Shown here piece by piece: positions 27,473 through 49,279 of a stretch of DNA of 64,000 nucleotides. The stretch is from Polyangia bacterium. GTDB lineage: Bacteria > Myxococcota_A > Polyangia > Fen-1088. The notes under the pieces were generated by a model, which searched no databases, had not been told where the DNA came from, and saw only the letters and a program-made list of their open reading frames with translations. A program made the translations under genes and the position numbers. The stretch is taken from assembly GCA_036267635.1 (NCBI GenBank), contig DATAVR010000012.1:6834-70833 (forward strand), given 5' to 3'. Positions within the stretch are counted from its first letter, which is position 1. Each line of letters begins with the position of its first letter.

Positions 27473-27799
27473 ATGAAACGGACCTTGATGGCACTGATCC
27501 CCGCGGCACTGATGACCTTCGGCTCTGCGGCGTTCGCCGCCGATCCGGCCGCCAAGCCTGATTGCTCCGAGCAGCAGAAGGCGCTCGACGACGCCAGCGC
27601 GGCGGCGAAGACCGCCAGCGCCAAGCCCGACCTTTCGACCTGCAAGGAGATGAAGGGCAAGGACAAGAGCGACTGTGAGAAGCCGCTGAAGGATAAAGCG
27701 AAGTCCGACGCCAAGGCGGCCAAGGAGAACTCGAAGGCCACCAAGACGGCGCTCGAGTGTTGCAAGAACCCGAGGAAGAAGGGGGGCTGCAACCCGTAG
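27473..27799 (+). CDS. Small secreted Lys-rich, six-Cys protein (108 aa)
   Basis: RBS AAGGAGACC precedes the ATG at 27473. Signal peptide MKRTLMALIPAALMTFGSAAFA. The mature part is highly charged (PDCSEQQKALDD...STCKEMKGKDKSDCEKPLKDKAKSD...LECCKNPRKKGGCNP). It is the 3' end of track ORF 26702..27799. Confidence 0.7.
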   Translation: MKRTLMALIPAALMTFGSAAFAADPAAKPDCSEQQKALDDASAAAKTASAKPDLSTCKEMKGKDKSDCEKPLKDKAKSDAKAAKENSKATKTALECCKNPRKKGGCNP

Positions 27800-27911
27800 C
27801 CCGACACGCGTTTTCGAGGTGCGACGCCGCCGGATTCCTGGCCGGCGGCGTCTCGCCGCGCCGAGCGGCGCTTTTGTCGAGCCGCGGTGGTATTCTCGGA
27901 CGACCATCTTC

Positions 27912-29621: not shown

Positions 29622-30796
29622 CGCCCGGGATTGCGGCCGAGCACGCGGCGGTAGACGGCGACGTAGCGGTCGACCGCCGGCTCGACGCGGTAGCGGGTCT
29701 CGGCGAGGCGCCGCGCGGCCGCCGAGAGGCGCGCATGAAGGGGGCCGTCGCCCAAGAGGCGACGGGCGGCGGCCGCCATCGCCTCGACGTCGCCGAGCGG
29801 ACAGAGAAAGCCGACCTCACCGTCGGGGATCACCTCCGGCAGGCCGCCGACGGCCGAGGCGATCACCGGCACGCCCGAGGCCATCGCCTCGAGGGCGGCC
29901 AGACCGAAGCTCTCGGTCTCGCTCGGGAGCAGAAAGAGATCGGCCTCGCGCAAGAGGACCGGCAGATCGATTCGCTCGCCGAGAAACTCGACGTCGGCGG
30001 CCAGGCCGAGCGCGGCGGCCATTGCGAGGGCGCGCGGGCGTTCGGGGCCGTCGCCGACCAGGCGCAGGCGGGCCGGGCGGGTGGCGCGGAGGCGCGCGAA
30101 CACCTCCACGACGTCGGGGACGCGCTTGACCGGGCGGAAGTTCGAGACGTGCACGACGACTGGCCGGTCGGGCAGCGGCCGCGGCGTCGCGCCGGCCGGA
30201 CGAAAGCGATCGGCGTCGACGAAGTTGGGGATGACGTCGATGGCCACCGTGCCAGGCACCCCCAGCGTCTCGTGGGTGGCGCGCGCCAGCCAGGCCGACG
30301 GCGTGGTGACGGCGTCGCTGGCGGCGATCGAGAACCGGGTGAGCGGCAGGAAGCTGGGATCGCTGCCGACCAGCGTGATGTCGGTGCCGTGCAGCGTGGT
30401 CACCAGCTTGGGCGCTGCTCCCGGACCTCCGGCGTCGGTGGCCAGCACCTCGCGCGCCAGGTGGGCGCTCACCGCGTGAGGGAGGGCGTAGTGCGCGTGC
30501 ACGACGTCGAGCCGCTCGCGCCGTGAGACCTCCACGATCTTCGAGGTGAGCGCCAGCGTGTAAGGCGAGTGTTTGAGCTGCGGGTAGTCGGGCGGCGCCA
30601 CCCGGTGGAAGGAGAGGTTGGGGCGCGTCGGATCGAGGCGCCCAGGGACGTCGTCGCTGAAGACGTGCACCGCGTGCCCCCGCTGCGCGAGCGAGGTGGC
30701 GATCTCCGCGGCGATGACGCCGCTGCCGCCGAAGGTCGAAAAGCAGACGATGCCGACCCGCAGCGGCGGGGCGATGTCGACGTGGCCGGCGCTCAT
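29618..30796 (-). CDS. bshA: GT4 glycosyltransferase, BshA-type (N-acetyl-alpha-D-glucosaminyl L-malate synthase)
   Basis: It aligns by eye along its whole length with Bacillus BshA as I remember it. Matching segments: RVGIVCFSTFGGSGVIAAEIATSLAQRGH, DVVHAHYALPHAVSAHLA, TTLHGTDITLVGSDPSF, VVHVSNFRPVKRVPDV, SETESFGLAALEAMASGVPVIAS. Confidence 0.88.
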   Translation of the reverse strand: MSAGHVDIAPPLRVGIVCFSTFGGSGVIAAEIATSLAQRGHAVHVFSDDVPGRLDPTRPNLSFHRVAPPDYPQLKHSPYTLALTSKIVEVSRRERLDVVHAHYALPHAVSAHLAREVLATDAGGPGAAPKLVTTLHGTDITLVGSDPSFLPLTRFSIAASDAVTTPSAWLARATHETLGVPGTVAIDVIPNFVDADRFRPAGATPRPLPDRPVVVHVSNFRPVKRVPDVVEVFARLRATRPARLRLVGDGPERPRALAMAAALGLAADVEFLGERIDLPVLLREADLFLLPSETESFGLAALEAMASGVPVIASAVGGLPEVIPDGEVGFLCPLGDVEAMAAAARRLLGDGPLHARLSAAARRLAETRYRVEPAVDRYVAVYRRVLGRNPGR

Positions 30797-32442
30797 GGCT
30801 CCAGATCCTGAAGCGCCGTCGTGAAGGGATCGGCCGCCAGCCGTTCGAACACCAGCGCCTTGAGCGCGGCGGGACCGTGCCGGCCGGCCAGCGACGGCCA
30901 GGCGTAGGCGCGCTCCTGCGGGACTCCCCCGGGGGCGAGCGCGTCGACGAGGCGTCCGAGCCGTCCGAGAGCGACGCCGTCGCGCTCGGCGAGCTTGCGG
31001 GCATAGCGCCCGGCGAGCCGGTCGAGCGCGCGGCTGACGTGGGCGCGCGTGCGCTCGGCGGCGCGCGCGAGGTTGCGATCGTGCGGATCGAGCGCGGCGA
31101 CCGTGCCGGCGAGCTGATCGATGACGGGCGCGACGTCGGTCGCGATGCGCGCGGCGAGCGCGGCGCCGCTCGGTCTCCCCGGCGCCGCGGTGCCCGGCAG
31201 GCGCGCGATCAGCTCGGCCTGCGGGCGCAGGAGATCATCGGCAGCCAGGCCGAGCTCGGCCAGACGCCGGCGCGTGTGCGCGTCGAGGCAACGGAAGCGG
31301 GCGCGCGGAACCACCAGCGGCATCGCCAAACGAAAATGCGCGTAGAGCGGCCCGAGCTGGGCGAAGTAGCTGATCTCCGCCGGGCCGCCCACGTAGGCCG
31401 CCGTCGGCAGCAGCGTGTCCTGCACGATCGGCCGCAGCAGCGCCGAGGTGGAGAAGCGGAGTGGATCGCGGGCCAGCGCCTCGGCGATCTCCGACGCCGG
31501 CCAGAGGTCGTCGCACCCGGCCAGCCGCCACGGTGCCGCGGCGCTCTCGGGGCGCGCGAGGCGGTAGCGCGGGCCGGTGGCGGCGTGGCGGTGGCCGAAG
31601 AGCAGTGCGCAGCCGGGGCGTATCGGGATCTGCTCGTCGAAACCTGCCGTCGCCAGCGCCGCGCGCCGCTCTGCGAGCCCGCGCTCGATCTCCGCCGAGC
31701 CGGCGAGCGCCTCACGGTAGACCGGGGCCGCCAGGGCGGCGACCCGCGGCTCGCGCGGATCGAAGATCAGCAGCCCCTCGTCGGCGAAGAGCGCGCCCAG
31801 CAGCCCGGCGAACGCCGACCCGAGCGGGCGTCCGGCGGTGTAGTGGGCGCGGAGCAACGCCAGCGTCTCCTGCGCCGCCGGGCCCGTGCCGAGAAGCTCG
31901 GCGAGCGCGTCGAGCAGCGCCGTCACCTGGGCGGGCAGGCGGCGGTGGGCGATCGAGACGCGCGCCTCGGCCATCGTCTCGGCGGGGAGCGCCAGCGTGA
32001 CCGGTCGGCCGCCCGAGCCGGCGACGGTCGCCGCGGCGATCTCGGCGAAGTCGTGGTCCTCGGTCTGCAGCCAGAACAGAGGGACGCAACGCAGGCCCGA
32101 TTCCGCCGAGAGCGCCCGCGCCACCGCGACCGCGGAGGCCGCCTTGTAAAATCCGTAGAGCGGCCCGAGAAAGAGCCCCACCTGCTGCCCGGTGGCGACC
32201 ACCGCCGTCCGACCGGCCGCGAGCGCGGCGAGGTTCTCGGCGCGCGCCCGGCTCTCCGGCAGCGCCGCTTGTTGCTCGCGCAGCACCGCGACGAGCTCGG
32301 CGGGGGCGCGGCGCTCGGCGGCGTTGCGCGCGCGCGCCATCCGGTCGGCCTCTGACCGGAAGTCGAGCGGAATGAAAGTTCGGGCGATCGCCTCGCCGGC
32401 GAGGTACGAGCTGGAGAATGCGCGAGCCACCGGGGGCATCAA
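30793..32442 (-). CDS. bshC: Bacillithiol biosynthesis cysteine-adding enzyme BshC-type
   Basis: 549 aa. The signature ATGQQVGLFLGPLYGFYKAASAVAVARAL...VPLFWLQTEDHDFAEI matches the BshC TGQQxGLxxGPLYxxxK...PvFW...DHD pattern. There is a 4-nt overlap with bshA. Confidence 0.85.
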   Translation of the reverse strand: MMPPVARAFSSSYLAGEAIARTFIPLDFRSEADRMARARNAAERRAPAELVAVLREQQAALPESRARAENLAALAAGRTAVVATGQQVGLFLGPLYGFYKAASAVAVARALSAESGLRCVPLFWLQTEDHDFAEIAAATVAGSGGRPVTLALPAETMAEARVSIAHRRLPAQVTALLDALAELLGTGPAAQETLALLRAHYTAGRPLGSAFAGLLGALFADEGLLIFDPREPRVAALAAPVYREALAGSAEIERGLAERRAALATAGFDEQIPIRPGCALLFGHRHAATGPRYRLARPESAAAPWRLAGCDDLWPASEIAEALARDPLRFSTSALLRPIVQDTLLPTAAYVGGPAEISYFAQLGPLYAHFRLAMPLVVPRARFRCLDAHTRRRLAELGLAADDLLRPQAELIARLPGTAAPGRPSGAALAARIATDVAPVIDQLAGTVAALDPHDRNLARAAERTRAHVSRALDRLAGRYARKLAERDGVALGRLGRLVDALAPGGVPQERAYAWPSLAGRHGPAALKALVFERLAADPFTTALQDLEP

Positions 32443-32486: not shown

Positions 32487-35090
32487 ATGCGTCAGCGCAC
32501 TCTTCCCGTTATCTTTTCAATTCTCCTTTCAGTCTTCTTTTCAGTCCCGCTTTCGTTCATGTCTGGTCCCAACGCCCTCGCGGCCGGTCCCCCGCCGCAA
32601 CCAAACGCCGCGCAGATCGCGCTCGGGCTTCGCAAGCTGGGCGTGGCCGGCAGCGTCCTCTACGTCGCCGCGCACCCCGACGATGAGAGCACCGCGCTCT
32701 TGGCCTATCTGGCGAACGGCGCGCAGGTGCGCACGGCCTATCTCTCGGTCACCCGCGGTGACGGCGGGCAAAATCTGATCGGCTCGGAGCAGGGGCCGGC
32801 GCTGGGCCTCATTCGCACGCAGGAGCTGCTGGCGGCGCGCCGGATCGACGGTGCCGAGCAGTTCTTCACCCGCGCGCGCGACTTCGGTTTCTCCAAGAGC
32901 CCCGACGAAACGCTGCGCATCTGGGGCAAGGACGCCGTGCTGGCCGACGTGGTGGCGGTCATCCGCAAGTTTCGCCCCGACGTGATCGTCACCCGGTTTT
33001 CTCCCGAGCCGGCGGAGACCCACGGCCACCACACCGCCTCGGCGATCCTGGCGCTGGAGGCGTTCCACGCCGCCGCCGATCCCAAGTTCCACCCCGAGCA
33101 GCTGACCGGTGGGGTCGGGCCCTGGCAGGCGCGGCGGATCTTCTGGAACCGGTCGTCCTTCTTCATCAAGCCGACCGACGACGTGAGCGGCGACGTCAAG
33201 CTGGACGTCGACGGATACAACCCTCTTCTCGGCGAGTCGTACGGCGAGATGGCGGCCGACGGCCGCAGCATGCACAAGAGCCAGGGGTTCGGCGTGGCCC
33301 GCACGCGTACGCCCATCGTCGAGTACTTCAAGCTGCTGGCGTCGTCGGACCCGAAGGAGAAGGCGGCGGGCAAGCCGCTCAGCGGAATCCTGGACGGCGT
33401 CGACGTCACGCTGAGGCGCTTCAGCGGCGCGACGCGGCTGCGCGGCCTCGTCGACAAGGCGATCGCGAAGTTCGATCTCGCCGCGCCGGCCGCCTCGGTG
33501 CCGGCGCTGGTCGCCATCGACGGCGCCCTGGAGGAGATCCACGACGCCGGCTGGCGTGCGGAGAAGCAACGCGAGGTGACCGATCTGGTCGTCGCCTGCG
33601 CGGGGCTGTTCGTCGATGCGACGGCCGCCGACTACCGCGCGGCGCCCGGGACGGCCGTCGAGGTCACGGCGACCGCCGTCGATCGCTCGCCGGTGGCGGT
33701 GACGCTCGACGAGGTCCGGTTCCCGTTCGAGGCGAGCGGTCACGACGTCGCGCACAAGCTCGGAGTGCCGAAACAGGACGGCCAGAAGATCGCCGGCGCC
33801 GCGACCCCCTTCGAGCTCAAACAGAGCGTGAAGCTGCCGGCCGATCTCGCGCCGACGACGCCCTACTGGCTGGAGGCTCCGCCCGAGGCCGGTCTCTACC
33901 ACGCCGATTCGGCTTTCATTGGGCTGCCCGAACGCGCCTCGCCCGTCGAGGTCAGGTTCGTCTTCGGTATCGGCGGGCGCAAATTCACCGTCGCGCGTCC
34001 GGTCAGCTACAGGTGGACCGACCCGGTGATGGGCGAACGCTATCGCCCGCTGGAGGTGACGCCGGCGGTCTCCGTTCGCCCCGAGACGTCCGTGTTGATG
34101 TTCCCCCGCGGGATGGTCCAGACGCTGACAGTGCGTCTGGTGGCCGGCGTCCCGTCGGCGGCCGGCGTTCTGCGACCGGAGGCTCCCGCCGGCTGGACCG
34201 TCGAGCCGTCGTCCGCTCCGTTTGCCCTCGGGGCCATCGGGAGCGAGGCGGCGCTGACCTTCCGCGTGCGCAACAATGCCGGCGCCGGAAAGTCACCGGC
34301 TCCGGCGCTCCTGCAGGTGGTCGCCGAGACGGGTGGCGCTCGGCTCTCGCGAGGCGTGGTCCGGATCGAGCACCCGCACATTCCGATCCAGACCTACCTG
34401 GTCGACGCCGGCGTGCGGCTGGTTCCGCTCGACCTCGCCATCGCGGGGAAGCGGATCGGCTACATCCCGGGACCGGGCGACGAGGTTCCGGCCAGCCTGC
34501 GGCAGGTCGGTTACGACGTGACGCTCCTCGGTGATGAGGCGCTGGCGGGCGGCGCGCCGGCGCTGGCCCGCTTCGATGCGGTGGTCGTCGGCGTGCGCGC
34601 GTTCAACACCAATGAGCGGCTGCGGGCCGCGCACGCGGCGCTCATGGCCTACGTCGACGGCGGTGGGGCTCTGCTGCTGCAGTACAACACCAACAACCGG
34701 ATCGCCCCACTGACGGCCCCCCTCGGCCCCTGGCCGTTCGACATCGGCCAGAAGCGGGTCACCGACGAGACGGCGGCGGTGACGTTCACGATGCCCGGTC
34801 ATCCCGCGCTCACGACGCCGAACGTGATCGGCGCCGCCGACTTCGAGGGGTGGATTCAGGAACGCGGTCTCTACTTCGCCGACAAGTGGGACGGCCACTA
34901 CCAGACTCCGCTCGCGATGCACGATCCCGGCGAGCCGCCCCAGGCCGGCAGCTTGCTCTGGGCGCGCTACGGAAAGGGGACGTTCGTCTACACCGGGCTG
35001 GCGTTCTTCCGGCAGCTTCCGGCCGGCGTCCCGGGCGCCTATCGCCTGTTCGCCAACCTGCTGGCGGCGGGGCACGCGCCGGGCAAGTGA
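32487..35090 (+). CDS. Large PIG-L/LmbE family deacetylase with an N-terminal signal peptide and a long C-terminal extension (ThuA/GATase-like end)
   Basis: The ATG at 32487 gives MRQRTLPVIFSILLSVFFSVPLSFMSGPNALAAG. LmbE motif LYVAAHPDDESTALLAYL...TRGDGGQN...HGHH. The C-terminal FDAVVVGVRAFNTNERL...YVDGGGALLLQYN resembles ThuA-like/class-I amidotransferase folds. Confidence 0.85.
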   Translation: MRQRTLPVIFSILLSVFFSVPLSFMSGPNALAAGPPPQPNAAQIALGLRKLGVAGSVLYVAAHPDDESTALLAYLANGAQVRTAYLSVTRGDGGQNLIGSEQGPALGLIRTQELLAARRIDGAEQFFTRARDFGFSKSPDETLRIWGKDAVLADVVAVIRKFRPDVIVTRFSPEPAETHGHHTASAILALEAFHAAADPKFHPEQLTGGVGPWQARRIFWNRSSFFIKPTDDVSGDVKLDVDGYNPLLGESYGEMAADGRSMHKSQGFGVARTRTPIVEYFKLLASSDPKEKAAGKPLSGILDGVDVTLRRFSGATRLRGLVDKAIAKFDLAAPAASVPALVAIDGALEEIHDAGWRAEKQREVTDLVVACAGLFVDATAADYRAAPGTAVEVTATAVDRSPVAVTLDEVRFPFEASGHDVAHKLGVPKQDGQKIAGAATPFELKQSVKLPADLAPTTPYWLEAPPEAGLYHADSAFIGLPERASPVEVRFVFGIGGRKFTVARPVSYRWTDPVMGERYRPLEVTPAVSVRPETSVLMFPRGMVQTLTVRLVAGVPSAAGVLRPEAPAGWTVEPSSAPFALGAIGSEAALTFRVRNNAGAGKSPAPALLQVVAETGGARLSRGVVRIEHPHIPIQTYLVDAGVRLVPLDLAIAGKRIGYIPGPGDEVPASLRQVGYDVTLLGDEALAGGAPALARFDAVVVGVRAFNTNERLRAAHAALMAYVDGGGALLLQYNTNNRIAPLTAPLGPWPFDIGQKRVTDETAAVTFTMPGHPALTTPNVIGAADFEGWIQERGLYFADKWDGHYQTPLAMHDPGEPPQAGSLLWARYGKGTFVYTGLAFFRQLPAGVPGAYRLFANLLAAGHAPGK

Positions 35091-35293: not shown

Positions 35294-37005
35294 GCGCCGT
35301 CGACTGGGCGGTCCTGTTCGGGACGCTGGCGGCGATCGTCGGCTACGGGATCTGGAAGACGCGTGGCCCGTCGAACATGACGGACTACGTCCACGGCGGT
35401 TACCGCGACCGCTGGTTGACGATCGGTCTCGGCGTGATGGCGACGCAGGCCTCCGCCATCACCTTCCTCTCGATGCCGGGGCAGGCCTACGAAGACGGCA
35501 TGCGCTTCCTGCAGTTCTACTTCGGCCTGCCGGTAGCGATGGTGATCCTCTCCGTCGCCTTCATCCCGCGGTTCTACCGGATGCGGGTGCTGACGGCGTA
35601 CGAGTACCTCGAGGGGCGCTTCGACCTCAAGACGCGTCAGTTGGCGGCGCTCCTGTTCCTGCTTCAGCGCGGCCTCTCGGCCGGGATCACCATCTACGCG
35701 CCGGCGATCGTCCTCTCCAAGGTGCTCGGCTGGCCGTTGAACCTGACCTGCCTGGTGATCGGCGGCCTCGTCATCCTCTACACCGTCGCGGGCGGCACCC
35801 GCGCGGTGAGCCAGACGCAGAAGCACCAGATGGTGGTGATGCTCGGCGGGATGGTGGTGGCGTTCGTGGTCATCGTCCACCGGCTGCCGGCCGAGCTTTC
35901 GCTCCGCCACGCGGTCGCGGTCGCCGGGACGCTGGGCAAGATGAACGTGGTCGATTTCTCGCCCCAGCTCGGGAACCGCTACACCTTCTGGTCGGGCCTG
36001 ACCGGCGGCGGCTTCCTGGCCATGGCCTACTTCGGCACCGATCAGTCGCAGGTGCAGCGATATCTGTCGGCGCGCTCGGTCACGGAGAGCCGGATGGGCC
36101 TCTTGTTCAACGGCCTGCTCAAGGTCCCGATGCAGTTTCTGATCCTCTTCGTCGGCGTGATGGTCTTCGTCTTCTATCAATTCAATGCGCCGCCGCTGTT
36201 CTTCAACGAGTCGGAGCTGGCGCGCGTCGCCCGGACGCCCCACGCGGCGGAGATGCGCGCGCTCGAGGCCGAGCATCAGGTGACGTTCGCCAAGAAGCGC
36301 GTCGAGGTGTCGCGGCTGGCGGCGGCGCTCGACGCGGGCGACGCGGTTGCGGTCGCCGACGCCCGCGCCCGCGTGCGCGCGGCGGCGGTGGGCGACGAGG
36401 CGGTCCGGGAGAAGGCGCGGACGCTCATCGCCGCGGCGCTGCCGCAGCCGGAGACCCACGACGCCGACTACGTCTTCCTGTCGTTCGTGATGGCGAACCT
36501 GCCACGGGGCCTCATCGGACTTCTGCTGGCGGTGATCCTCTGCGCCGCCATGTCGTCGACGGCCAGCGAGCTGACCGCGCTCGGCGGCTGCACGGTGGTC
36601 GACTTCTACCGGCGCAGCTTTCGCCCCCACGCCACCGATGCGCACTACCTACGGGTCGCCAAGATCGCCACCGGCGTCTGGGGCCTGCTGGCGGTGGCGT
36701 TCGCCGGCTTCGCCTCGCTGGTCGACAACCTGATCCAGGCGGTCAACATCCTCGGCTCGCTGTTCTACGGGACGATCCTGGGGATCTTCCTGGCCGCGTT
36801 CTTCTTCCGCCGGCTGCGGGCGACGCCGGTCTTTGTGGCGGCGATCGGCTCGGAGGCGCTGGTCATCGCGCTTTGGCTCTGGACCGGGATCGGCTTCCTC
36901 TGGTTCAACGTGATCGGCTGCGTCGCCGTGCTGCTCTTGTCATCCGTCCTGAGCGGGTCAGACTTCGGCCGCCACTCCACCCCGACCACGGAGACAACCC
37001 CATGA
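35290..37005 (+). CDS. Sodium:solute symporter (SSS/SSF) family transporter
   Basis: 571 aa with about 13 hydrophobic helices. N-terminal SSF-like region: GGYRDRWLTIGLGVMATQASAITFLSMPGQAY. The substrate is unknown. Confidence 0.9.
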   Translation: MSAVDWAVLFGTLAAIVGYGIWKTRGPSNMTDYVHGGYRDRWLTIGLGVMATQASAITFLSMPGQAYEDGMRFLQFYFGLPVAMVILSVAFIPRFYRMRVLTAYEYLEGRFDLKTRQLAALLFLLQRGLSAGITIYAPAIVLSKVLGWPLNLTCLVIGGLVILYTVAGGTRAVSQTQKHQMVVMLGGMVVAFVVIVHRLPAELSLRHAVAVAGTLGKMNVVDFSPQLGNRYTFWSGLTGGGFLAMAYFGTDQSQVQRYLSARSVTESRMGLLFNGLLKVPMQFLILFVGVMVFVFYQFNAPPLFFNESELARVARTPHAAEMRALEAEHQVTFAKKRVEVSRLAAALDAGDAVAVADARARVRAAAVGDEAVREKARTLIAAALPQPETHDADYVFLSFVMANLPRGLIGLLLAVILCAAMSSTASELTALGGCTVVDFYRRSFRPHATDAHYLRVAKIATGVWGLLAVAFAGFASLVDNLIQAVNILGSLFYGTILGIFLAAFFFRRLRATPVFVAAIGSEALVIALWLWTGIGFLWFNVIGCVAVLLLSSVLSGSDFGRHSTPTTETTP

Positions 37006-37592
37006 AGACGCGCTCCCCCCTCCTCATTGCCGCGATGGTCATGCTCGGCCTGGCGGGCTTCGTCGCGCCCGCGCAGGCCAAAAAGGCCGCCGCGCCGGCC
37101 GCCGCCAGCAACGGGTTCCAGACCGACTTCCTCGCGCTGCTCGACGACGTGCAGAAGAAGATCCTCTCGCTGGAGGACGCCGTCCCGCAGGACAAGTTCA
37201 AGTGGCGGCCGGCCCCCGGCGTCCGCTCGATCTCCGAAGCCTTCCTGCACATCGCCTACGGAAACTACGGCTTCATCAAAGGCGCTACCGGCAAGGCGCC
37301 GCCGGCGGAGGTCGGCTGGGAGACGGACCGCGCCAAGTGGGACGCCAAGACCACGGACAAGGCAGAGATCAAGAAGACGCTCGAAGCGTCGTTCGAACAG
37401 GTACGCGCGGTCATGAAGGACGTCAAGGACGCGGACCTCGACAAGAAGGTCACCGTGTTCGGCCACGACATGACGGAGCGCGCGGTCTGGATGGCGCTCA
37501 TCGGCCACCTGAACGAGCACATGGGGCAGGAGGTCGCTTACGCCCGCGCCAACGGCGTCGTCCCGCCCTGGAGCATGCCCCAAGGTGGGTGA
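37002..37592 (+). CDS. DinB family protein with a signal peptide
   Basis: The ATG at 37002 overlaps the symporter stop (ATGA). Signal peptide LLIAAMVMLGLAGFVAPAQA. DinB-type His positions: FLHIAYGNY and IGHLNEHMGQ. Confidence 0.82.
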   Translation: MKTRSPLLIAAMVMLGLAGFVAPAQAKKAAAPAAASNGFQTDFLALLDDVQKKILSLEDAVPQDKFKWRPAPGVRSISEAFLHIAYGNYGFIKGATGKAPPAEVGWETDRAKWDAKTTDKAEIKKTLEASFEQVRAVMKDVKDADLDKKVTVFGHDMTERAVWMALIGHLNEHMGQEVAYARANGVVPPWSMPQGG

Positions 37593-37639: not shown

Positions 37640-38470
37640 CTACCGCGCCGTCCAGCCGCCGTCGATGAGCAGCGTGGTGCCGGTGATCATCGCGGCCGCC
37701 GGCGAGCAGAGAAAGACGACGGCGGCCGCCACGTCCGGTGGCTCGCCGACGCGGCCGAGCGGGATGCGCGCCAGCAGATCGCGCCGGAAGTTTTCGTCGT
37801 CCAGCCATTTGACCGTGCCGGGGGTGCGGACGAAGGTCGGAGCGACGGCGTTGACGTTGATGCCGTGCGCGGCCCACTCGACCGCCAGGCACTTGGTCAG
37901 GTGGGCGATGGCCGCCTTGGTCATGCAGTAGATCGACTCGGTCGGCAGCGCGACGAAGCCGGCCTGCGAGCTGAGGTTGACGATCCGGCCGCCGCGGCCG
38001 GCCGCGATCATGGCCCGTCCCACCGCCTGGCTGACGAAGAAGGTCCCTTTGAGGTTCACCGCCAGCGTGGCGTCGAAGTCGGCCTCGGTCACCGTCAGGG
38101 CGGGGTTGGGGGGCCCGATGCCAGCGTTGTTGACCAGGATGTCGAGGGGGCCGAGCTGGCGGATTGCCTCGGCCACCGCCGGCGCGATCTCGGCGGGCCG
38201 CGCGACGTCCATCTGCAAGGGGAGGGCGCGCCGGCCAAGCGCACGGACGGCCTCGGCGACGTCACCCCCGGCCCGGACGTCGCGAAATCCGAGCGCGACG
38301 TCGGCGCCGGCGCGGGCCAGCGCGATCGCGGCGGCGCGGCCGATCCCGCGCGCGGCCCCGGTCACGAGCGCGATCTGGCCGGCGACGTCGAAGGCGGGGG
38401 TGGCGTCGCGTGTGTCATCGCGAGTGGCGTCGCGTGTGTCATCGGGAGCCAGCGGCGGGATTTCGTTCAT
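37640..38470 (-). CDS. Short-chain dehydrogenase/reductase (SDR) family oxidoreductase
   Basis: Motifs: VTGAARGIGRAAA (TGxxxGIG), NNAG, YCMTKAAIAHLTK (YxxxK). The N-terminus carries the duplicated octapeptide DDTRDATR/DDTRDATP. Confidence 0.95.
   Translation of the reverse strand: MNEIPPLAPDDTRDATRDDTRDATPAFDVAGQIALVTGAARGIGRAAAIALARAGADVALGFRDVRAGGDVAEAVRALGRRALPLQMDVARPAEIAPAVAEAIRQLGPLDILVNNAGIGPPNPALTVTEADFDATLAVNLKGTFFVSQAVGRAMIAAGRGGRIVNLSSQAGFVALPTESIYCMTKAAIAHLTKCLAVEWAAHGINVNAVAPTFVRTPGTVKWLDDENFRRDLLARIPLGRVGEPPDVAAAVVFLCSPAAAMITGTTLLIDGGWTAR
38401..38448 (-). repeat. In-frame 24-bp tandem duplication at the 5' end of the SDR gene
   Basis: TGGCGTCGCGTGTGTCATCGCGAG followed by TGGCGTCGCGTGTGTCATCGGGAG (1 mismatch). 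Confidence 0.9.
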
Positions 38471-38570
38471 CCCGTGACGTTATCGCGTAACCGGGCCTGG
38501 GGGCGCGCGTAGCACCTTCCGAACACGAACCGGGCCCCGGTGGCCCTCGAACCAAAACCAGGAGAGAGAC

Positions 38571-38813
38571 ATGAGCATCAAGGGAGCAATGATCGCCGCT
38601 TCGGTGGCCGGGCTGTTCACGATGGGCATCGCGGGCGTCGCCTCGGCGAAGAAGGGGGAGGTGATGTGCAGCGGCGTCAACGCCTGCAAGGGGCAGAGCG
38701 CCTGCAAGGGGGGCGACAACTCTTGCAAGGGGAAGAACGGCTGCAAGGGGCAGGGGAACATGAAGATGAGCAAGGACGACTGCACCGCCAAGGGCGGAAA
38801 GGCCGTCAAGTAA
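38571..38813 (+). CDS. bufA: Sec-signal six-cysteine RiPP precursor peptide (bufferin BufA2-like)
   Basis: RBS AGGAGAGAG is 5 nt upstream of the ATG. Signal peptide MSIKGAMIAASVAGLFTMGIAGVASA. The 54-aa core is KKGEVMCSGVNACKGQSACKGGDNSCKGKNGCKGQGNMKMSKDDCTAKGGKAVK, with exactly 6 Cys and four C-K-G repeats. It lies directly upstream of the DUF692 and DUF2063 genes. The gene symbol is by analogy only. Confidence 0.85.
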   Translation: MSIKGAMIAASVAGLFTMGIAGVASAKKGEVMCSGVNACKGQSACKGGDNSCKGKNGCKGQGNMKMSKDDCTAKGGKAVK

Positions 38814-38824
38814 CGCGGACCTGG

Positions 38825-38848
38825 CCGGCGGCGCCTGGGCGCTGCCGG
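38825..38848 (+). promoter_or_regulatory. Intercistronic hairpin between the precursor and the MNIO gene
   Basis: CCGGCGGCGC-ctgg-GCGCTGCCGG forms a 10-bp stem (one G-U pair) with a 4-nt loop. It starts 12 nt after the precursor stop. Confidence 0.4.
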
Positions 38849-38866
38849 TCGTCGATTTGCGCCGAG

Positions 38867-39730
38867 ATGCCGATGACGAAGTCGCTGTTTCCAAATTTGG
38901 GTCGCGGGCTCGGGTTGCGGCGCGAGCACTACCGGCAGGTGGTGGAGGATCGCCCCGCGGTCGGCTGGTTCGAGGTGATCTCGGAGAACTTCATGGTGGC
39001 CGGCGGCAACCCGCGGCGCGTGCTCGACGCTGTTCGCCGCGACTACCCGGTCGTCTTGCACGGCGTGTCGCTGTCGATCGGCTCGACCGATCCGCTCGAT
39101 GAGCGCTATCTCGCCGAGCTGGACGCGCTGGCGCGGGCGACGGAGCCGGCCTGGATCTCGGACCATCTCTGCTGGGGGACGGCGCACGGGATCAACGCGC
39201 ACGATCTGCTGCCGCTGCCGTACACCGAGGAGGCGCTGGCGCACGCCGTGCGCCGGGTGGAGAGGGTCCAGGAGCGGCTCGGACGGCGGATCTTGCTGGA
39301 GAACCCCTCGAGCTATCTGGTCCTCGACGGCGACATGGCGGAGCACGAGTTCCTCGCCGAGCTGGCCCGCCGCGCCGACTGCGGCATTCTGCTCGACGTC
39401 AACAACGTCTTCGTGAGCGCCCGCAACCACGGGTGGGATGCGCACGCCTACCTGGCGGCGCTGCCGGCCGAGCGCATCGGTCAGATTCATCTGGCGGGTC
39501 ACTCGGCCGACGGGGCGTTGCTGATCGACACGCACGACGGCACCGTCTGCGACGAGGTCTGGCAGCTCTACGCCGAGGCCATCGAGAGGTTCGGCCCGCG
39601 ATCGACGATGATCGAGTGGGACGCCGACGTTCCGGCGTTCGAGGTGCTGGAACGGGAGCTCGTCCGGGCGGCCCAGTTCGAGGCGGCGGCGCTCGGCAAG
39701 AAGCGCGAGGAGACGCGCGATGCGGCCTGA
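38867..39730 (+). CDS. bufB: DUF692 / MNIO (multinuclear non-heme iron-dependent oxidative) enzyme, MbnB/BufB-like
   Basis: Met at 38867 (or 38873). Motifs: LGLRREHY, GWFEVISENFM, VLHGVSLSIGS, WISDHLCW, LLENPSSY, ILLDVNNVFVSARNHG, QIHLAGH, typical of the UPF0276/DUF692 TIM barrel. The gene symbol is by analogy. Confidence 0.92.
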   Translation: MPMTKSLFPNLGRGLGLRREHYRQVVEDRPAVGWFEVISENFMVAGGNPRRVLDAVRRDYPVVLHGVSLSIGSTDPLDERYLAELDALARATEPAWISDHLCWGTAHGINAHDLLPLPYTEEALAHAVRRVERVQERLGRRILLENPSSYLVLDGDMAEHEFLAELARRADCGILLDVNNVFVSARNHGWDAHAYLAALPAERIGQIHLAGHSADGALLIDTHDGTVCDEVWQLYAEAIERFGPRSTMIEWDADVPAFEVLERELVRAAQFEAAALGKKREETRDAA

Positions 39731-40550
39731 GCGTCCGCTCTGTTCGCCGCGCCCACCGCTGGCGTCGGTGCAAGCGGCACTGCTGTCGTGGATCACCGGA
39801 CAGGGGCTGGGGGCGCCGGCGGTCGACCCGCCCTCGCTGATTCACTCCGACGCGCGGGCCGGCGCCGATGAGCGGTTGGCTGTCTACGCGCACATGTACC
39901 GGGCGCGGCTGGTCGAGGCGTTGGAGTCGCAATTCCCGCGGCTCGCCAGGCTGGTCGGCGCCGAGGCCTTCGCCGACCTCACGGCCGACTACGTGGCCGA
40001 CGCGCCCTCGCGGCATCCGTCGCTGCGCGAGCTCGGGCGCGCGTTGCCGCTCTGGCTGGCGGAGCGGCGCGCCGAGCGGCCGGCGCTGGCGTCGCTGGCG
40101 GCGCTCGAGTGGGCGCGCGTCGACCTCTACGATCAGGCCGACGAGGCGGCGATGACCTTGGAGACGCCCCGCGCCTGGCCGCCGGAACGGCTCGGCGAGC
40201 TTCCGCTCAGGTTGATCGCCGCGCATCGATTCGTGGAGGTCGCTGGCGGGACCGAGGCGCTCTGGGACGCGCTCTCGTCCGACGCGACCGAGGTGCCCTC
40301 CGCTCTGGTCGCTTCGAGCGCTCTCCGCCCGAGCGCGCCGCTGCTGGTCTGGCGCCAGGAGATCGCCGTCTACCACCGCGCGCTCGCGCCGGATGAATGC
40401 GCCGCGCTCGCTGCGCTGGCGGACGGCAGCTGCTTCGGCGTCATCTGTGAGCGCCTGGCGGCCGTTCACGGCGACGAGCTCGCCGCGGGGCGGGCGTTCG
40501 GCTGGCTCTCGACCTGGCTCACCGACGGCCTCCTCGTCCAACCCGCCTGA
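39720..40550 (+). CDS. bufC: DUF2063 domain protein (MNIO partner protein, BufC-like)
   Basis: The start overlaps the DUF692 stop by 11 nt. ERLAVYAHMYRARLVEALESQFPRLARLVGAEAFADLTADYVADAPSRHPSLRELGRALPLWL matches the DUF2063 N-terminal pattern (vYrn...L...fP...G...F...yi...PS...L...G..fp.fL). Confidence 0.85.
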   Translation: MRPERPLCSPRPPLASVQAALLSWITGQGLGAPAVDPPSLIHSDARAGADERLAVYAHMYRARLVEALESQFPRLARLVGAEAFADLTADYVADAPSRHPSLRELGRALPLWLAERRAERPALASLAALEWARVDLYDQADEAAMTLETPRAWPPERLGELPLRLIAAHRFVEVAGGTEALWDALSSDATEVPSALVASSALRPSAPLLVWRQEIAVYHRALAPDECAALAALADGSCFGVICERLAAVHGDELAAGRAFGWLSTWLTDGLLVQPA

Positions 40551-40659
40551 GGGTCGCCGCCTGCGCCGGTGGCCCGCCACCGGCCAAATGCCGTACAATC
40601 CGACCATCACGGCCTCTGTCGGCGACATTGGTTTGGGGGGGCGGAGCCGTCGTCGGATC

Positions 40660-43600
40660 ATGGCGCGACAGCTGGCTGCGTTGTTGACTCTTTGCCTGGC
40701 GCTGCGGACGTCGGGCGCGCGCGCTGAGGACCCTTTCAGCAGCAGCCCGCCAAAAGCGCGGCCGCCCTGGGAGACGCGGTTCATGTCCGCGCCCCCGACG
40801 GAGGTGCTGGCCGCCGCGGCCGCCGTGAAGACACCGGCCGACACGCCGGTGGTGATCCTGTTCGAAGAGATGGTGCACAGCTACGAGGACGCGCACCGCA
40901 GCCACCACCGCTACCGCCAGGTCTACAAGATCCTCAGCCAGCACGGGATCGAGGGGTGGGATCGGCTCAGCAGCGGTTGGGCCCCCTGGTACGAGGACAA
41001 GCCGGCGCTGCGCGCGCGGGTGGTGGTGCCGGGGGGACGGACGTTCGGTCTCGATCCAAAGACGATCGAGACGAGCGGCCTGTCGGGCGGCGACGAGGCG
41101 GTGTTCAGCGATCGGCAGATGGTGCGGGCGCCGATCCCCGGCGTGGCGGTGGGCGCTGTCGTCGAGGTGGAGATCGAATGGACCGAGCGCGTGCCCCTGT
41201 TCGAGGCGGGGACGACGCACCGGTTCTTCTTCGGCGGGTCGGCGCCGGTCGAAAAGGCGCGGCTCCAGATCGAGTACCCGACCGAGCTGCACGTCGAGCA
41301 CGTCATTCGGAAGGTCACGCCGCTCACCCAGTCCCTGACCATGACCGGCAACCGGACCACCGAGTCCTACGAGAGCGGCCCGTACGCGGCGCTCCCCGAG
41401 GAGGTCCCCGGGCAACCGGCCGAGACGACGCTCCCCGCGTACGTCGCCTACACCACCGGCAGATCTTGGGCGACAGTGGCGGCGGCCTACGCCGACGTCG
41501 TCGACCGTCAGATCGGCAAGCCGGATCTGGCGAGCTACGTGCGCGACGCCAAGAAGGGGCTCGATCTCAAGCGCGATCGCGAGGCGATCATCGGGCGCCT
41601 GGTGGCGCGGCTCGGCGCCGACGTGAAGTACACCGGCATCGAGTTCGGCGAGGCGTCGATCGTTCCGCGCACGCCGGCGGAGGTGTTCGAGCGGCGTTAC
41701 GGCGACTGCAAGGACAAGGCGCTCCTGCTGACGGCGCTGTTGCGCTCCGCCGGCATCGCCGCCGAGGTGGCGTTGCTCGACTCGGGCTTCGGCCCCGACG
41801 TCGACCCCGACCTCCCCGGGTTCGGCAGCTTCGACCACGCGATCGTCTATCTGCCGGGGCCGAAGCCGCTCTGGATCGACGCCACCGATCAGTTTTCAGC
41901 GATCGGCGAGCTGCCGCTCGGAGATCAGGGGCGGCTGGCGCTGGTGGCGGCCCGCGGGACCAAGGCGCTGCTCCGCACGCCCGAGGCTCCGTCGACGGTC
42001 AACCTGACCCGCGAGGATCGCACCATCAGCGTCGCCGAGGACGGCAAGGTGCGCGTGGTCGAGATCTCGGCTCTGACCGGCTCGGCGGGCCACGCCATCC
42101 GCGCCGACTACAGCCGCGCCGAGAAGAAGCAGATCGAGGAGCGTCTCGCCGGCTACCTGCGGTCGACCTACCACGCCAAGACGCTCGGGCGCTGGGAGAC
42201 CTCGGACTTCTACGACGTGAGCCGGCCGCTGCGGATCGACCTCGAGACCTCGGACGCCGGCATCGGATCGATCAGCGACGACGAGGTGACCGTGATGTTG
42301 CCGCTCGCCGAGCTGTTCGAGCGGCTGCCCGACTTCCTGCGCAACCCCGACGGCGGCGAGCACAAGCGCGCCGGCGGGGCGGCGACGCGCACGCTCGACT
42401 ACGTCTACGGCGACCCGCACGTGCACGAGCTGCGCTACAAGGTGGCGGCGCCGCACGGCTTCGCCCCCGACCCGCCCCCCGGCGAAGAGACGGTGACGCT
42501 GGGCCCGGCGCGCTACACGGCCGCCTATCGGATCGAGCGCGACGGCACCCTGAGCGCGACGTTTCGCTTCGATTCGGGCAAGCCGCGCTTCTCGCCCGCC
42601 GAGCTGGCGGCGTTCCTGGCGGCGATGAAGACGCTGGGCGATCGCCATCTCCCCTCGGTGACCTTTCATCAGACCGGCGAGGCCGAGCTGACGGCCGGGC
42701 GGGTCCGCGAGGCGCTGGCGGAGTTCCGGCGCCTCGACGCGCAGCACCCCCACGAAGCGCTGCACGCCTGTCAGATCGCACGCGCCTATCTCGACGCGGG
42801 GCTGGGCGCGGCCGCGCGCGAGCAGGCGCGGCGTGCGGTGGCGCTCGACCCCAAGTCGTCGCGCGCCGAGCGGACGCTGGGCTGGGTGCTGGAGCACGAC
42901 CTCGTCGGTCGGCGGCTCAAGCCGGGGGCCGATCCGAAGGGGGCCGAGGCGGCCTACCGCAAGGCGATGGCGCTCGACACCGACGACCAGGTGGCGCGCG
43001 CCTCGCTGGTGATCCTGCTCGAGCACGACGCCGAAGGGGAGCAGACCTTTCGGCCGGCGCCCGATCGCCTGAGCGAGGTGCTGCAACTTCACCGCGAGCT
43101 GCGCAAGGCCGAGCGCACCGGCCTCCTCGTCAATCAGCTGCTCGATCTGCTTTACGCCGAGCGGTTCAAGGAGATCCTGGCCGACAAGGAGGCGATCGCC
43201 GGCAATGCCACCGCGCAAGGGATCTACGTCGCGGCGGTCGGAGCGACGGCGGGACCGGCGGAGGCGGCCAAGAGCGCGCGGGCGCTCATCTCCGATCCCG
43301 ATCAGGCGCACGAGGCGATGCGGCTCGCGGGGGCGGAGCTGATGGCGCTGCGTCGCTACAAGCCGGCGTCGGCGCTGCTCGAAGAGGCGGCGCAGCGGCA
43401 TGCCAGCGCCGAGCCGATGCGGCAGCTCGCCGATCGCTTGCGCACGACGCGGCGGCGCGAGGAGGTGAAGCTCGACGATCGGACGCCCTCGGGCGCGGCG
43501 CGGCTCTTCTTCTCCACCTTTTTCAGCCTGGCGGCGAGCCCCGATGCAGCGGCCTTCGCGCGCCTGAAGGCGGTCATCACGCCCTCGTTCGCCGCCAGCA

Positions 43601-46473: not shown

Positions 46474-48099
46474 TCAGAGCCGGCTGGCGTAGGCCGTCTG
46501 CATCGGCGGGTAGAGCGCCAGGTCGGGCAGAGCGTTGTAGTTGTTGCCCGAGCGCGACCAGAGCGCGTGCGTCGTCACCGTCGACGGATCGGACGTCTGC
46601 TTGGCGTTCCAGGTCCCCTGGGTGGTCGGCTCCCAGTCGAAGGTGCCGAGCCCCTGGTTGTTCGGCAGCCCGAACAGGACGTCGTTGATCTCGCGCTCCA
46701 TCGGGCCGTACTCGGCGGCAAAGAAGCGAATGTTCGGGTAGGCGGTCACGAGTTGCGAGAACGTCGACTGCCACATGCTCTTCGTGTTCGCCGTGCTGGA
46801 GGTGTCCCCCTGGTACGACTGGTAGCAGGACTCGCCGAAGGCGTCCGGCGTGGCGCCCTGCTTGATGGCGTTGTCGAGCCAGCTCTTGGTCGTCGAGTAG
46901 GCGTTCCCGCGATCGATGTGGAACGAGATGAGGATGCCCGTGTCGACCGCCTTGACGCCCGCGATGCCGGCCTTGAGCAGCATGCCCAGGTTCGGCCAGC
47001 CGGCCGTGCTGGCCGCGCCGGTGACCTTGGGGGTCATGCCGCTGATCGGTTGCCCGCCGGAGTCGCAGATGTGCAGGTCCATCCCGGGCGTCGTCTCGTT
47101 GCCGATCTGCACCATGTCGGGGCGGGCGCCGCCGGCGACGAGCGCGCTGATCGAGCTCTGCACGTAGCTCTGCAGCGCGCCGGCCAGATCGGTGATGTTG
47201 GTGTACCCCTGCCAGGCGACGGGCATGCACTGCTTGCCCGGGTCGGCCCAGTTGTCGCTCATGTGGAAGTCGACCAGCAGGCCCATTCCGGCGGCTTTCA
47301 CCAGCTTGCCGAAGGCAACGGTGTGCGTGATGTCGTCGTAGCCGTTCGTCCTGTCGTAGCCGTCGGAGGCCTTCGGGTCGACGAACGTCCGCAGGCGCAC
47401 GAAGTTCAGGCCGTTCGCCTTCATGGCCGTCAGCAAGTTGTTGATGGCGGTCGTCCCGGCCGTCTCTTGGTCGGTGACGTCGGCGCCGAAGAAGTAGCTG
47501 GGCAACGTGCTGCTGCTGCCGCCGGTTCCGGTGCCGCCGGTTCCGGTGCCGCCGGTTCCGGTCGTGCCACCCTTCGCGCCCCCGGTGCCCGTGGCACCGC
47601 CAGTCCCGGTCGTACCGCCCGTGGCGCCGCCAGTCCCGGTCGTACCGCCAGTCGCGCCGCCAGTCCCGGTCGTGCCGCCTTTGGCGCCGCCGGTTCCGGT
47701 CGTGCCGCCGGTTCCGGTGCCGCCGGTTCCGGTCGTGCCGCCTTTGGCGCCACCCGTTCCGGTCGCGCCACCGGTCCCGCTTGCTCCGCCGGTCGCCGTC
47801 GCGCCACCGGTTCCGGTCGCGCCCCCGGTTCCGGTCGCGCCACCGGTCCCGGTCGCGCCCCCGGTTGCCGTGGTTCCACCGGTTCCCGTGGCGCCGCCCG
47901 TTCCGGTCACCGCGCCGCCGGTTCCCGACCCGCCGCTTCCACTGCCGCCCGATCCCCCTTCACCGGTCGCGCCGCCGGTCGCTGTCGACCCGCCGGTCGC
48001 CGAGCTGCCACCTTCACCGTCGTCGGTGTTGCCGCTCTGACTGTTGGCGCAACCCAAGAGGGTGGCCGCAAACAAGAGGAGATAAGCGTGCTTGGACAT
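46474..48099 (-). CDS. Glycoside hydrolase family 53 (arabinogalactan endo-beta-1,4-galactanase) lipoprotein with a ~180-aa Gly/Thr linker
   Basis: Lipobox ATLLGCAN. Motifs: FFGADVTDQE, GLNFVRLRTFVDP, VDFHMSDNWADPGKQ, MVQIGNETTPG, RFFAAEYGP. Confidence 0.92.
   Translation of the reverse strand: MSKHAYLLLFAATLLGCANSQSGNTDDGEGGSSATGGSTATGGATGEGGSGGSGSGGSGTGGAVTGTGGATGTGGTTATGGATGTGGATGTGGATGTGGATATGGASGTGGATGTGGAKGGTTGTGGTGTGGTTGTGGAKGGTTGTGGATGGTTGTGGATGGTTGTGGATGTGGAKGGTTGTGGTGTGGTGTGGSSSTLPSYFFGADVTDQETAGTTAINNLLTAMKANGLNFVRLRTFVDPKASDGYDRTNGYDDITHTVAFGKLVKAAGMGLLVDFHMSDNWADPGKQCMPVAWQGYTNITDLAGALQSYVQSSISALVAGGARPDMVQIGNETTPGMDLHICDSGGQPISGMTPKVTGAASTAGWPNLGMLLKAGIAGVKAVDTGILISFHIDRGNAYSTTKSWLDNAIKQGATPDAFGESCYQSYQGDTSSTANTKSMWQSTFSQLVTAYPNIRFFAAEYGPMEREINDVLFGLPNNQGLGTFDWEPTTQGTWNAKQTSDPSTVTTHALWSRSGNNYNALPDLALYPPMQTAYASRL
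47499..48036 (-). repeat. Coding Gly/Thr linker repeat
   Basis: TGTGGATGTGG/GGTTGTGG units inside CDS 46474..48099. The complement is the Pro/Val-rich shadow ORF 47507..48040. Confidence 0.85.
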
Positions 48100-48237: not shown

Positions 48238-49245
48238 CTAACGAATGGCGAACGTCTCGTAGACCTCGGCGTTCCCGGAGCGCGTCGACGACAGCATCAT
48301 GTAGCTGAGATCCGGGGAGAGACTGGAGTCGGAGTCGTAGGCGGTCGAGTCGACGTCGCCGAGCAGCACCGGCGTCTCGAACGCCTCGGAGATCGACTGC
48401 CGCGCCGACCAGTAGATGTCGCCCGCGCCCGACTTCATCGAGGTGAAGAAGATGACCAACCCGCCCTGAGCGATGAAGGGGTCGTATTCGTCGCTCGGGC
48501 TGTTGACGCCGGGGACCGGCTGCGGCGCCCCCCAGGCGCTGTCGACGTTCGGGCGCGAGGTCCAGTAGAGGTCATAGTTGGCGCCGCCAGCGCTGCCGGC
48601 CAGGTCGACGCGATCCGAGCTGAAGAACAGCATCGTCTCGGTGGCGTCGACAGCCGGGGCGAAGTCGGCGGCGCCGCTGGCCAGCTCCGGCACGGCCGCG
48701 GGCGCGCTCCAGGCCGCGGTGCGCGCGGCGCGGGTGGCCTGCCAGATTTGGGCGTACCCCTTGGCGCGGTCGGTGGCGAACCAGATCGTGAGGCCGTCGA
48801 GCGAGATGCCGGGGCACCACTCGTCGTTGCCCGAGTTGAGCTCGGCGACGGCGGTGGGCGTCCCCCACGGATCGTCCGACGAGGCCCGGCGCGAGGTCCA
48901 GATGTCCTTCGTTCCGGCGCGCGTCGACATGAAGTAAAGCTCGAGCAAGTCGCCGGTAAAGGTCGGATCTTCATCGATTGAGCTGGCGTCGGAGAGCGCC
49001 GCGACGAGGGTCGGCGTCTGGAAGTGCGGCGGTGTGGCCAGCGGGACGCCGCCCATGTCGGCGGCCGCGGCGCCGCCACCATCGAGGAGCGTCCCCAGGA
49101 GGTCGTCGCGCCGGCTACAGGCCGGGCAGAGCGCCGACAGCGCCAACGACGCGAGCAGCAGGTGGCGCGCCCAACGGCGTGCCAGACGCCGCGCAACGAC
49201 TGCACATTTGACCCGCGGCTTGACCTCCGCAACCAACTTCGACAT
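48238..49245 (-). CDS. TolB-like beta-propeller (PD40/WD40-like repeat) periplasmic protein
   Basis: From the ATG at 49245: a basic N-terminus, then LLLASLALSALCPAC. Reiterated blades carry D/E-x-x-P-x-(I/L)S-x-D-G/-L-x-F/Y motifs: DEDPTFTGDLLELYFMSTR, NDEWCPGISLDGLTIWFATDR, ADFAPAVDATETMLFFSSDR, DEYDPFIAQGGLVIFFTS, YDSDSSLSPDLSYMMLSSTR. The start choice is uncertain. Confidence 0.78.
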   Translation of the reverse strand: MSKLVAEVKPRVKCAVVARRLARRWARHLLLASLALSALCPACSRRDDLLGTLLDGGGAAAADMGGVPLATPPHFQTPTLVAALSDASSIDEDPTFTGDLLELYFMSTRAGTKDIWTSRRASSDDPWGTPTAVAELNSGNDEWCPGISLDGLTIWFATDRAKGYAQIWQATRAARTAAWSAPAAVPELASGAADFAPAVDATETMLFFSSDRVDLAGSAGGANYDLYWTSRPNVDSAWGAPQPVPGVNSPSDEYDPFIAQGGLVIFFTSMKSGAGDIYWSARQSISEAFETPVLLGDVDSTAYDSDSSLSPDLSYMMLSSTRSGNAEVYETFAIR

Positions 49246-49279
49246 CGTTGAAAGCGCAGTGTCGCGGTTCTCCAAGCAA

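Follow-up and report, generated by a model that had tools for sequence, protein, structure and literature searches.

A predicted Buf2-type bufferin operon from uncultured Polyangia and its putative sigma-F-like promoter

The closest described counterpart of the locus reported here is the buf2 operon of Caulobacter vibrioides (bufA2B2C2, CCNA_03001-02999). It encodes a six-cysteine precursor with a Sec signal, an oxidase of the MNIO family (multinuclear non-heme iron oxidases, formerly DUF692) and a DUF2063/PME1 partner protein, and it has no bufD1-like gene (PMC11626156). In this organism, BufB and BufC are needed for modification, whereas DoxX is not; the first and last cysteines of Buf2 stay unmodified and are likely disulfide-bonded, while the central cysteines show a mass shift of -4.03 Da. 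The operon is induced by copper through SigF, and copper induction and copper protection are the sole functional data for Buf2 (PMC11626156). Since a 2026 revision that includes oxazolin, 5-thiooxazole is the current assignment for the modified residues across the products of MNIO-PME1 pairs, and multiple Cys-Lys motifs define one of three groups of their precursors, the captophorins (PMC13097082). Here, we describe a locus of this kind in a 64-kb stretch of Polyangia DNA with a GC content of 70%; this whole stretch is called the window in the following, and all positions are counted within it. We are highly confident that this is a complete bufA2-bufB2-bufC2 operon of the 'Cys-Lys' captophorin group, whose product would be modified, exported and employed to sequester excess copper.

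The operon runs on the forward strand and comprises the precursor gene bufA2 (38571-38813, 80 aa), the MNIO gene bufB (38867-39730, 287 aa) and bufC (39720-40550, 276 aa), the gene for the DUF2063-type partner (PME1). An initial annotation, made from the DNA letters, had described an 80-codon open reading frame (ORF) with a strong ribosome-binding site (RBS), a signal peptide and a 54-residue core with six cysteines, four of them in C-K-G motifs, and every one of these elements is in place. It had also put the enzyme gene 53 nt downstream of the precursor gene and the overlap with the partner gene at 11 nt, and both figures are exact. All three ORFs are intact, with a GC content at third codon positions (GC3) of 0.90-0.93; the long antisense ORFs at 38480-39796 (-) and 39399-40844 (-) are read as putative shadow ORFs of GC-rich DNA.

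The bufB and bufC products are identical to HEX3901629.1 and HEX3901630.1 at NCBI, which stem from the metagenome-assembled genome (MAG) of a Polyangia bacterium, so that the myxobacterial origin suspected from the sequence could be made definite. Their public labels are 'DUF692 domain-containing' and 'DNA-binding domain-containing', respectively. Six independent metagenome assemblies yielded identical proteins, and the nearest relatives of the locus are found in Polyangia and Myxococcota MAGs, a phylum already listed among those with these MNIOs (PMC11626156). The exact 80-aa precursor sequence is absent from the protein collection searched.

For the family assignment, we compared the bit scores of the products with the cut-offs of curated equivalog models from NCBIfam. 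The precursor scores 72.3 bits against NF050166 (Cu_RiPP_BufA2, 'BufA2 family periplasmic bufferin-type metallophore'; cut-off 60), in a match that spans profile positions 2-78 of 79 and precursor residues 6-78, signal peptide included; the enzyme scores 382.6 bits against NF050167 (MNIO_BufB, 'MNIO family bufferin maturase'; cut-off 310). In Pfam, the enzyme matches PF05114 (MbnB_TglH_ChrH; E = 6.7e-110, 367 bits) and the partner PF09836 (E = 1e-20, 74.2 bits against a cut-off of 27.2), which upholds their earlier recognition as DUF692 and DUF2063 proteins. The HvfB (256.6 vs 360), MbnB (74.8 vs 325), ApyH and ChrH models all stay under cut-off for the bufB product, as does the HvfC model for the bufC product (46.3 vs 142), and the precursor has no match at E <= 1 to PF10048 (DUF2282), the Buf1 model. 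A precursor hit to DUF7640, at 19.1 bits against a cut-off of 28.1, was disregarded. Because precursor and enzyme pass NF050166 and NF050167, while HvfB, ApyH, MbnB and ChrH fall below cut-off and DUF2282 is unmatched, the locus is, by its sequence families, a Buf2-type bufferin cluster and not a Buf1, oxazolin or methanobactin cluster. The proposal of a bufferin system with a BufA2-type precursor is thereby borne out.

With C. vibrioides buf2, the locus shares the A-B-C gene order, the lack of DoxX and of adjacent sigma and anti-sigma genes, a six-cysteine precursor with a Sec signal, the pairing of an MNIO with a DUF2063/PME1 protein, and a sigma-F-like motif upstream. It differs in its phylum, Myxococcota (Polyangia) rather than Alphaproteobacteria, in the length of the core (54 vs 61 aa), in that all four central cysteines are part of C-K-G motifs, in its promoter (GTAACC-N15-CGTA vs GTAACC-N16-CGAA), and in an alanine at the position of BufB2-Asp251, with an aspartate one residue on. 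Bufferin 1 (bufA1B1C1D1) would be alike in its enzyme pair, chemistry, export route, copper buffering and sigma-F control, but the Polyangia precursor is unmatched by the Buf1 model and has six cysteines instead of four, and its locus contains neither bufD/DoxX nor sigma and anti-sigma genes, whereas sigF-nrsF lie near buf1. Likewise, the oxazolin/fontiphorin/gonophorin systems (HvfABC-type) combine an MNIO with a DUF2063 protein and would have in common with the present locus 5-thiooxazoles on a cysteine-rich, copper-linked peptide; these are 'Lys-Cys' captophorins, however, while the order here is Cys-Lys, there are no EGKCG repeats, and HvfB and HvfC score under cut-off. FonBC does not process a NACKG substrate (PMC13097082). 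Methanobactin (MbnABC) is related through its MNIO, which is homologous in fold and has identical metal ligands, and, by analogy, through the oxidative rearrangement of cysteines and a copper-binding product. It is set apart by the low MbnB score, by a partner that is MbnC instead of DUF2063-type, by a leader in place of a Sec signal peptide, and by its product, a secreted small chalkophore as opposed to the periplasmic mini-protein expected here.

The precursor gene is preceded by the RBS AGGAG (38560-38564, +), 6 nt before the ATG, the GGAG core of which is conserved in the aligned relatives. Its product reads MSIKGAMIAASVAGLFTMGIAGVASA followed by KKGEVMCSGVNACKGQSACKGGDNSCKGKNGCKGQGNMKMSKDDCTAKGGKAVK, that is, a predicted Sec-type signal peptide of 26 aa (38571-38648, +) and the core of 54 aa, which together with the stop codon occupies 38649-38813 (+). 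By inspection, the signal peptide MSIKGAMIAASVAGLFTMGIAGVASA has a basic n-region with K4, a hydrophobic stretch at residues 6-23 and ASA at 24-26 as the predicted cleavage site, followed by KK, and it lacks a lipobox cysteine. The core is rich in lysine and glycine and contains exactly six cysteines (C33, C39, C45, C52, C58 and C71), of which the four central ones each precede K-G. The Buf2 family, also named Buf_6/12Cys, is marked by six or twelve conserved cysteines at this place.

We found 495 homologs of this precursor at E <= 1e-3. In an alignment of 24 sequences, no variation is seen in the six cysteines, in C39-K-G, in C58-K-G or over much of the signal peptide, and all six cysteines are retained in 185 of 195 relatives. 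Among these 195, Cys2 and Cys5 are almost always found as C-K-G, while Cys3 is followed by K, H or A and then G, T or S, and Cys4 by A or K and then G. The fully regular core with four CKG units, which the initial annotation had singled out, recurs in 31 of the 195 and is therefore a trait of a sub-clade, not unique to this locus; moreover, it belongs to the published Cys-Lys group, and NACKG, one of the common 5-mer motifs tested there (PMC13097082), is present verbatim. Searched as a profile against the PDB, the precursor matched nothing but the structural-zinc lobe of carbonyl reductases, and this at chance level (E ~0.1). Its AlphaFold2 model is of low confidence, with a pLDDT (predicted local distance difference test) of 57. 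This model places C33 in the first β-strand and C71 in a short helix, as published for the bufferin fold (PMC11626156).

Alignment of BufB with MbnB of M. trichosporium (PDB 7TCR) yields the ligand positions H65, H100, E145, D177, N180, H208, D221 and H223. We take these to be the counterparts of the MbnB iron ligands H54, H90, E133, D163, N166, H192, D208 and H210, and the ninth, E239, was placed on BufB E250 once the final part of the HMMER alignment, which had slipped by 2 residues, was corrected. Apart from a gap at E250 in one sequence, all nine positions are the same in 81 BufB sequences. D252, which corresponds to FonB-Asp249, the proposed catalytic base (PMC13097082), is likewise invariant in them. 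The site next to this base is Phe in Lys-Cys enzymes (FonB-Phe250) and Asp in Cys-Lys enzymes, where BufB2-Asp251 contacts a substrate lysine in a model of BufA2B2C2 (PMC13097082).

In the Polyangia enzyme, this specificity site is Ala253, followed by Asp254 (39623-39628 for the two residues), in the motif EWDADVP. Its 81 relatives have Asp or Glu in 63 cases, Ala in 13 and Phe in none; an acidic residue at this site is a trend among Cys-Lys enzymes, not a strict definition. EWDADVP is common to the window and its two closest relatives, L007 and L012, whereas the usual form is Asp-x, with the motif ERDDN. Whether an enzyme has Ala253 shows no correlation with how many C-K motifs its precursor contains. 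As a weaker addition to the regulon proposal made below, precursors with four CKG units and enzymes of the Ala253/Asp254 variant might mark a sub-clade with altered site or metal selectivity.

For BufC, a sequence-level search of the PDB gave no match, and we turned to its AlphaFold2 model (pLDDT 91.6). The best Foldseek matches are 3DEE (NGO1945; E 5e-5, template modelling score 0.72 on the target), the founding DUF2063 structure, and TglI (8hci_A; E 9e-5), a member of the TglHI complex; MbnC chains appear at E ~2 only. The C-terminal part has weaker matches to the RiPP (ribosomally produced, post-translationally modified peptide) recognition element (RRE) domains of ThcOx and TbiB1. As modelled, BufC thus has an NGO1945/TglI-like fold with an RRE-like C-terminal domain.

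The arrangement of the three genes is widely kept. In the 185,579 species genomes scanned, relatives of BufB are encoded at no fewer than 598 loci, and the counts that follow refer to the best 80 of these. A Buf2-like ORF lies directly upstream of the bufB relative in 71 of the 80, with all six cysteines in 65; a BufC homolog follows BufB directly in 77. A consistent fourth gene after bufC was sought in the 80 loci, and none was found. The candidate usually thought of in this place, DoxX, was identified by Pfam among 6 of 30 candidate ORFs from related loci, and a hidden Markov model (HMM) built from the DoxX genes of these loci detects it within 6 kb in 21 of the 80, but in no frame of the window. 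Two Polyangia relatives have a DoxX gene in convergent orientation right after bufC (L008:7759-8358 (-) and L009:7678-8178 (-)), while the closest relatives L007 and L012 have none, and so the association varies even within this clade. The initial annotation was therefore right that DoxX is missing, yet this is nothing unusual: with DoxX in only 21 of 80 loci, the gene is optional, the founding buf2 operon does without it as well, and even in Buf1 it is dispensable for function and modification (PMC11626156).

Upstream of bufA2, we found a putative promoter of the extracytoplasmic function (ECF) type, GTAACC (-35)-N15-CGTA (-10), at 38487-38511 (+), which ends 59 nt before the ATG. It is the sole exact match in the window, with 0.02 expected. 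When the 160 nt upstream of the precursor are aligned between the window and seven Polyangia and Myxococcota loci, GTAACC and CGTA are invariant and the rest has diverged; a slightly relaxed form of the motif precedes the precursor in 12 of the 80 loci, where chance would give 0.019 per 700 nt. Two of the 12 loci are alphaproteobacterial, and one of these two shows CGAA at precisely the spacing seen in Caulobacter. In C. crescentus, the experimentally supported sigma-F site GTAACC-N16-CGAA drives both buf operons (PMC3511200). No sigma-70-like promoter was detected in 38300-40900, and an occurrence of GTAACC-N14-CGAA at 25867-25890, a second promoter-like match, lies inside the long minus-strand ORF 25303-27387 and is attributed to chance. 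From the motif, transcription would most likely start at a sigma-F-like ECF promoter and depend on a SigF-like sigma factor that acts in trans and is encoded outside the window. The first transcribed base would be expected near 38518-38522, ~7-10 nt after CGTA.

Under such control, no regulator gene would be expected next to the operon. The initial annotation had noted correctly that none is adjacent; as an anomaly, however, the observation does not hold, as Buf2 clusters, unlike those of Buf1, are reported to lack sigma and anti-sigma genes (PMC12452194). The window does encode an ECF sigma factor (Sigma70_r2/r4_2; 49034-49933), followed by an anti-sigma-like protein (zf-HC2 and TPR), the two together spanning 49034-50832 (+). 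We did not adopt it as the regulator, given that its partner is of the zf-HC2/TPR and not of the NrsF/DUF1109 type and that no GTAACC motif lies upstream of it.

The spacer between bufA2 and bufB can form a GC-rich RNA hairpin (38814-38861, +) with a 14-bp inner stem and a folding energy of -31.5 kcal/mol. At related loci, 58 of the 62 A-B spacers have a hairpin of this type, though of unrelated sequence (median z -2.6), and in some of them a U-tract follows; it is only because the feature recurs throughout the family that the hairpin of the window is credible. An Rfam search of 38200-40900 returned nothing relevant. Elements of this sort commonly raise the ratio of precursor to enzyme in RiPP operons, and the hairpin probably has a comparable role, possibly as a partial terminator or mRNA stabilizer. 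Both the recurrence of this intra-operon hairpin across the Buf2 family and the conservation of a sigma-F-like promoter upstream of Buf2 precursors in Myxococcota are modestly new.

Whereas gene content, family membership, catalytic positions, partner fold, synteny and the conservation of promoter motif and hairpin are shown here, we infer from the Caulobacter model which sites are modified and by what chemistry, that a disulfide forms, and that the product is exported and binds copper, as well as the regulator. On this model, BufC would bind the precursor through its RRE-like domain and hand it to the iron enzyme BufB, which would use O2 to convert C39, C45, C52 and C58 in their C-K-G motifs to 5-thiooxazoles, each with a loss of ~4.03 Da. 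The modified precursor would then be exported by the Sec system and cleaved by signal peptidase after ASA26, a disulfide would form between C33 and C71, and the mature, lysine-rich periplasmic mini-protein of 54 residues would sequester excess copper. The calculated monoisotopic mass of the unmodified, reduced core is 5410.50 Da; with four modifications and one disulfide, a mass of ~5392.4 Da is predicted, a shift of ~-18.1 Da. To the predicted copper binding, copper-stress induction and protection, the sigma-F-like motif lends indirect support.

Several points weigh against this reading. Modification and metal specificity are both beyond what a sequence can tell, and the specificity site of the enzyme deviates from the acidic residue of most relatives. 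The hairpin of the window is not significant alone when compared with shuffled sequences (z = -1.2 to -1.4), the promoter differs from the sigma-F site in both spacing and -10 element, and no SigF/NrsF pair is present in the window, where the product of 49034-49933 is the sole ECF sigma factor found. Lastly, a related conserved MNIO/DUF2063 cluster of Microbulbifer (mmr) is not expressed under copper stress (PMC12538549), and copper induction is therefore not universal.

The behaviour of mmr would also fit a different role, in which the same thiooxazole chemistry serves not copper buffering but the handling of a different thiophilic metal, such as Cd, Hg, Ag or Zn, or a response to oxidative or sulphur stress. 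Such a role would be in keeping with the Caulobacter sigma-F regulon, which includes both buf operons and responds also to chromate, dichromate and cadmium (PMC3511200), with MerC-Buf2 fusions in mercury-detoxification clusters (PMC12452194), and with the bacillithiol biosynthesis genes and the DinB/MST-like gene that adjoin the locus. This thiol-gene neighbourhood, however, is kept in L007 and L012 only and probably has no functional link to the operon, and the functional data on Buf2 concern only copper (PMC11626156); we thus consider a role other than copper buffering unlikely. Less probable still is that the modified cysteines form oxazolone-thioamide pairs as in methanobactin. These are isomeric with 5-thiooxazoles and hard to distinguish from them, MbnB is a homolog of BufB, and oxazolin itself was initially assigned an oxazolone/thioamide structure (PMC11252979). 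It has since been reassigned to 5-thiooxazole, which the authors of the revision extend to MNIO-PME1 products generally (PMC13097082); further preprints from 2025-2026 reportedly back 5-thiooxazole in bufferins, and BufB scores far under the MbnB cut-off.

The least probable alternative, to which we give hardly any weight, is that the cluster is a relic or silent, so that the peptide is either exported unmodified, with a disulfide only, or not made at all. While the atypical Ala253 could be taken as a sign of decay, the three ORFs are intact with a high GC3, the catalytic positions are invariant, identical proteins occur in the six independent metagenome assemblies, and promoter, RBS and hairpin are conserved in relatives.

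Upstream of the operon lies a divergent SDR gene (37640-38470), at the 5' end of which we observed a tandem duplication of ~24 nt (GTGGCGTCGCGTGTGTCATCGCGA / ...GGGA; ~38395-38442) that leads to a repeated DTRDAT peptide in the N-terminal extension of the protein. Further upstream follow a DinB/MST-like gene, a sodium:solute symporter, a PIG-L-domain protein, BshC and BshA. BshA, BshC, the PIG-L protein and the DinB/MST-like protein form a neighbourhood related to low-molecular-weight thiols (29618-32442 (-), 32559-35090 (+) and 36999-37592 (+)), in which BshA (455 bits, cut-off 274) and BshC (383 bits, cut-off 266) are bacillithiol biosynthesis genes in a Polyangia genome; the PIG-L deacetylase-domain protein of 843 aa has weak matches to the BshB, MshB and Mca models. 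Downstream, 37-110 nt after bufC, begins the gene of a secreted protein of ~1400 aa with DUF3857, transglutaminase core and TPR (40588/40660-44826, +), which is conserved in this place in L007 and was undetected in L012 or other related loci. We considered whether the genes for bacillithiol, DinB, SDR, the symporter and DUF3857 might belong to the system and rejected them all: they are syntenic at most in the closest relatives L007 and L012 and are therefore not counted in the buf system.

Elsewhere in the window, a small ORF at 27473-27799 (+) has a signal-peptide-like N-terminus (MKRTLMALIPAALMTFGSAAFA) and a lysine-rich tail that contains seven cysteines, with CCKNPRKKGGCNP as its end; no MNIO is nearby, and the ORF has no relation to the buf locus. 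Several secreted-looking ORFs (23951-27387 (-) and 27819-28721 (+)) have very long Gly/Thr/Ala-rich linkers with TGTGGATG-type repeats; their antisense frames are proline-rich and are read as shadow ORFs, and one of these ORFs contains the chance promoter-like match at 25867-25890. A GH53 galactanase-like gene is found at 46474-48099 (-).

Taken as a whole, the locus represents an ordinary, textbook case of a Buf2 cluster, and the points flagged as unusual turn out to be the family norm. With it, a family that already numbers thousands gains one more example, this one from uncultured soil Polyangia, and the practical gain is a correct annotation; the promoter and hairpin findings leave our understanding of bufferins unchanged. 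What the promoter motif does suggest is how Buf2 clusters without an adjacent regulator are controlled. Tentatively, and with slightly less than even confidence, we propose that a sigma-F/ECF16-like metal-stress regulon, kept across Alphaproteobacteria and Myxococcota, includes the Buf2 operons of Polyangia, and that its regulator, a SigF-like factor possibly paired with an NrsF-like anti-sigma factor, is encoded elsewhere and reads GTAACC-N15-CGTA. If this is true, the motif would provide a sequence handle to predict the control of thousands of 'orphan' Buf2 clusters, since published surveys report no regulator genes in them.

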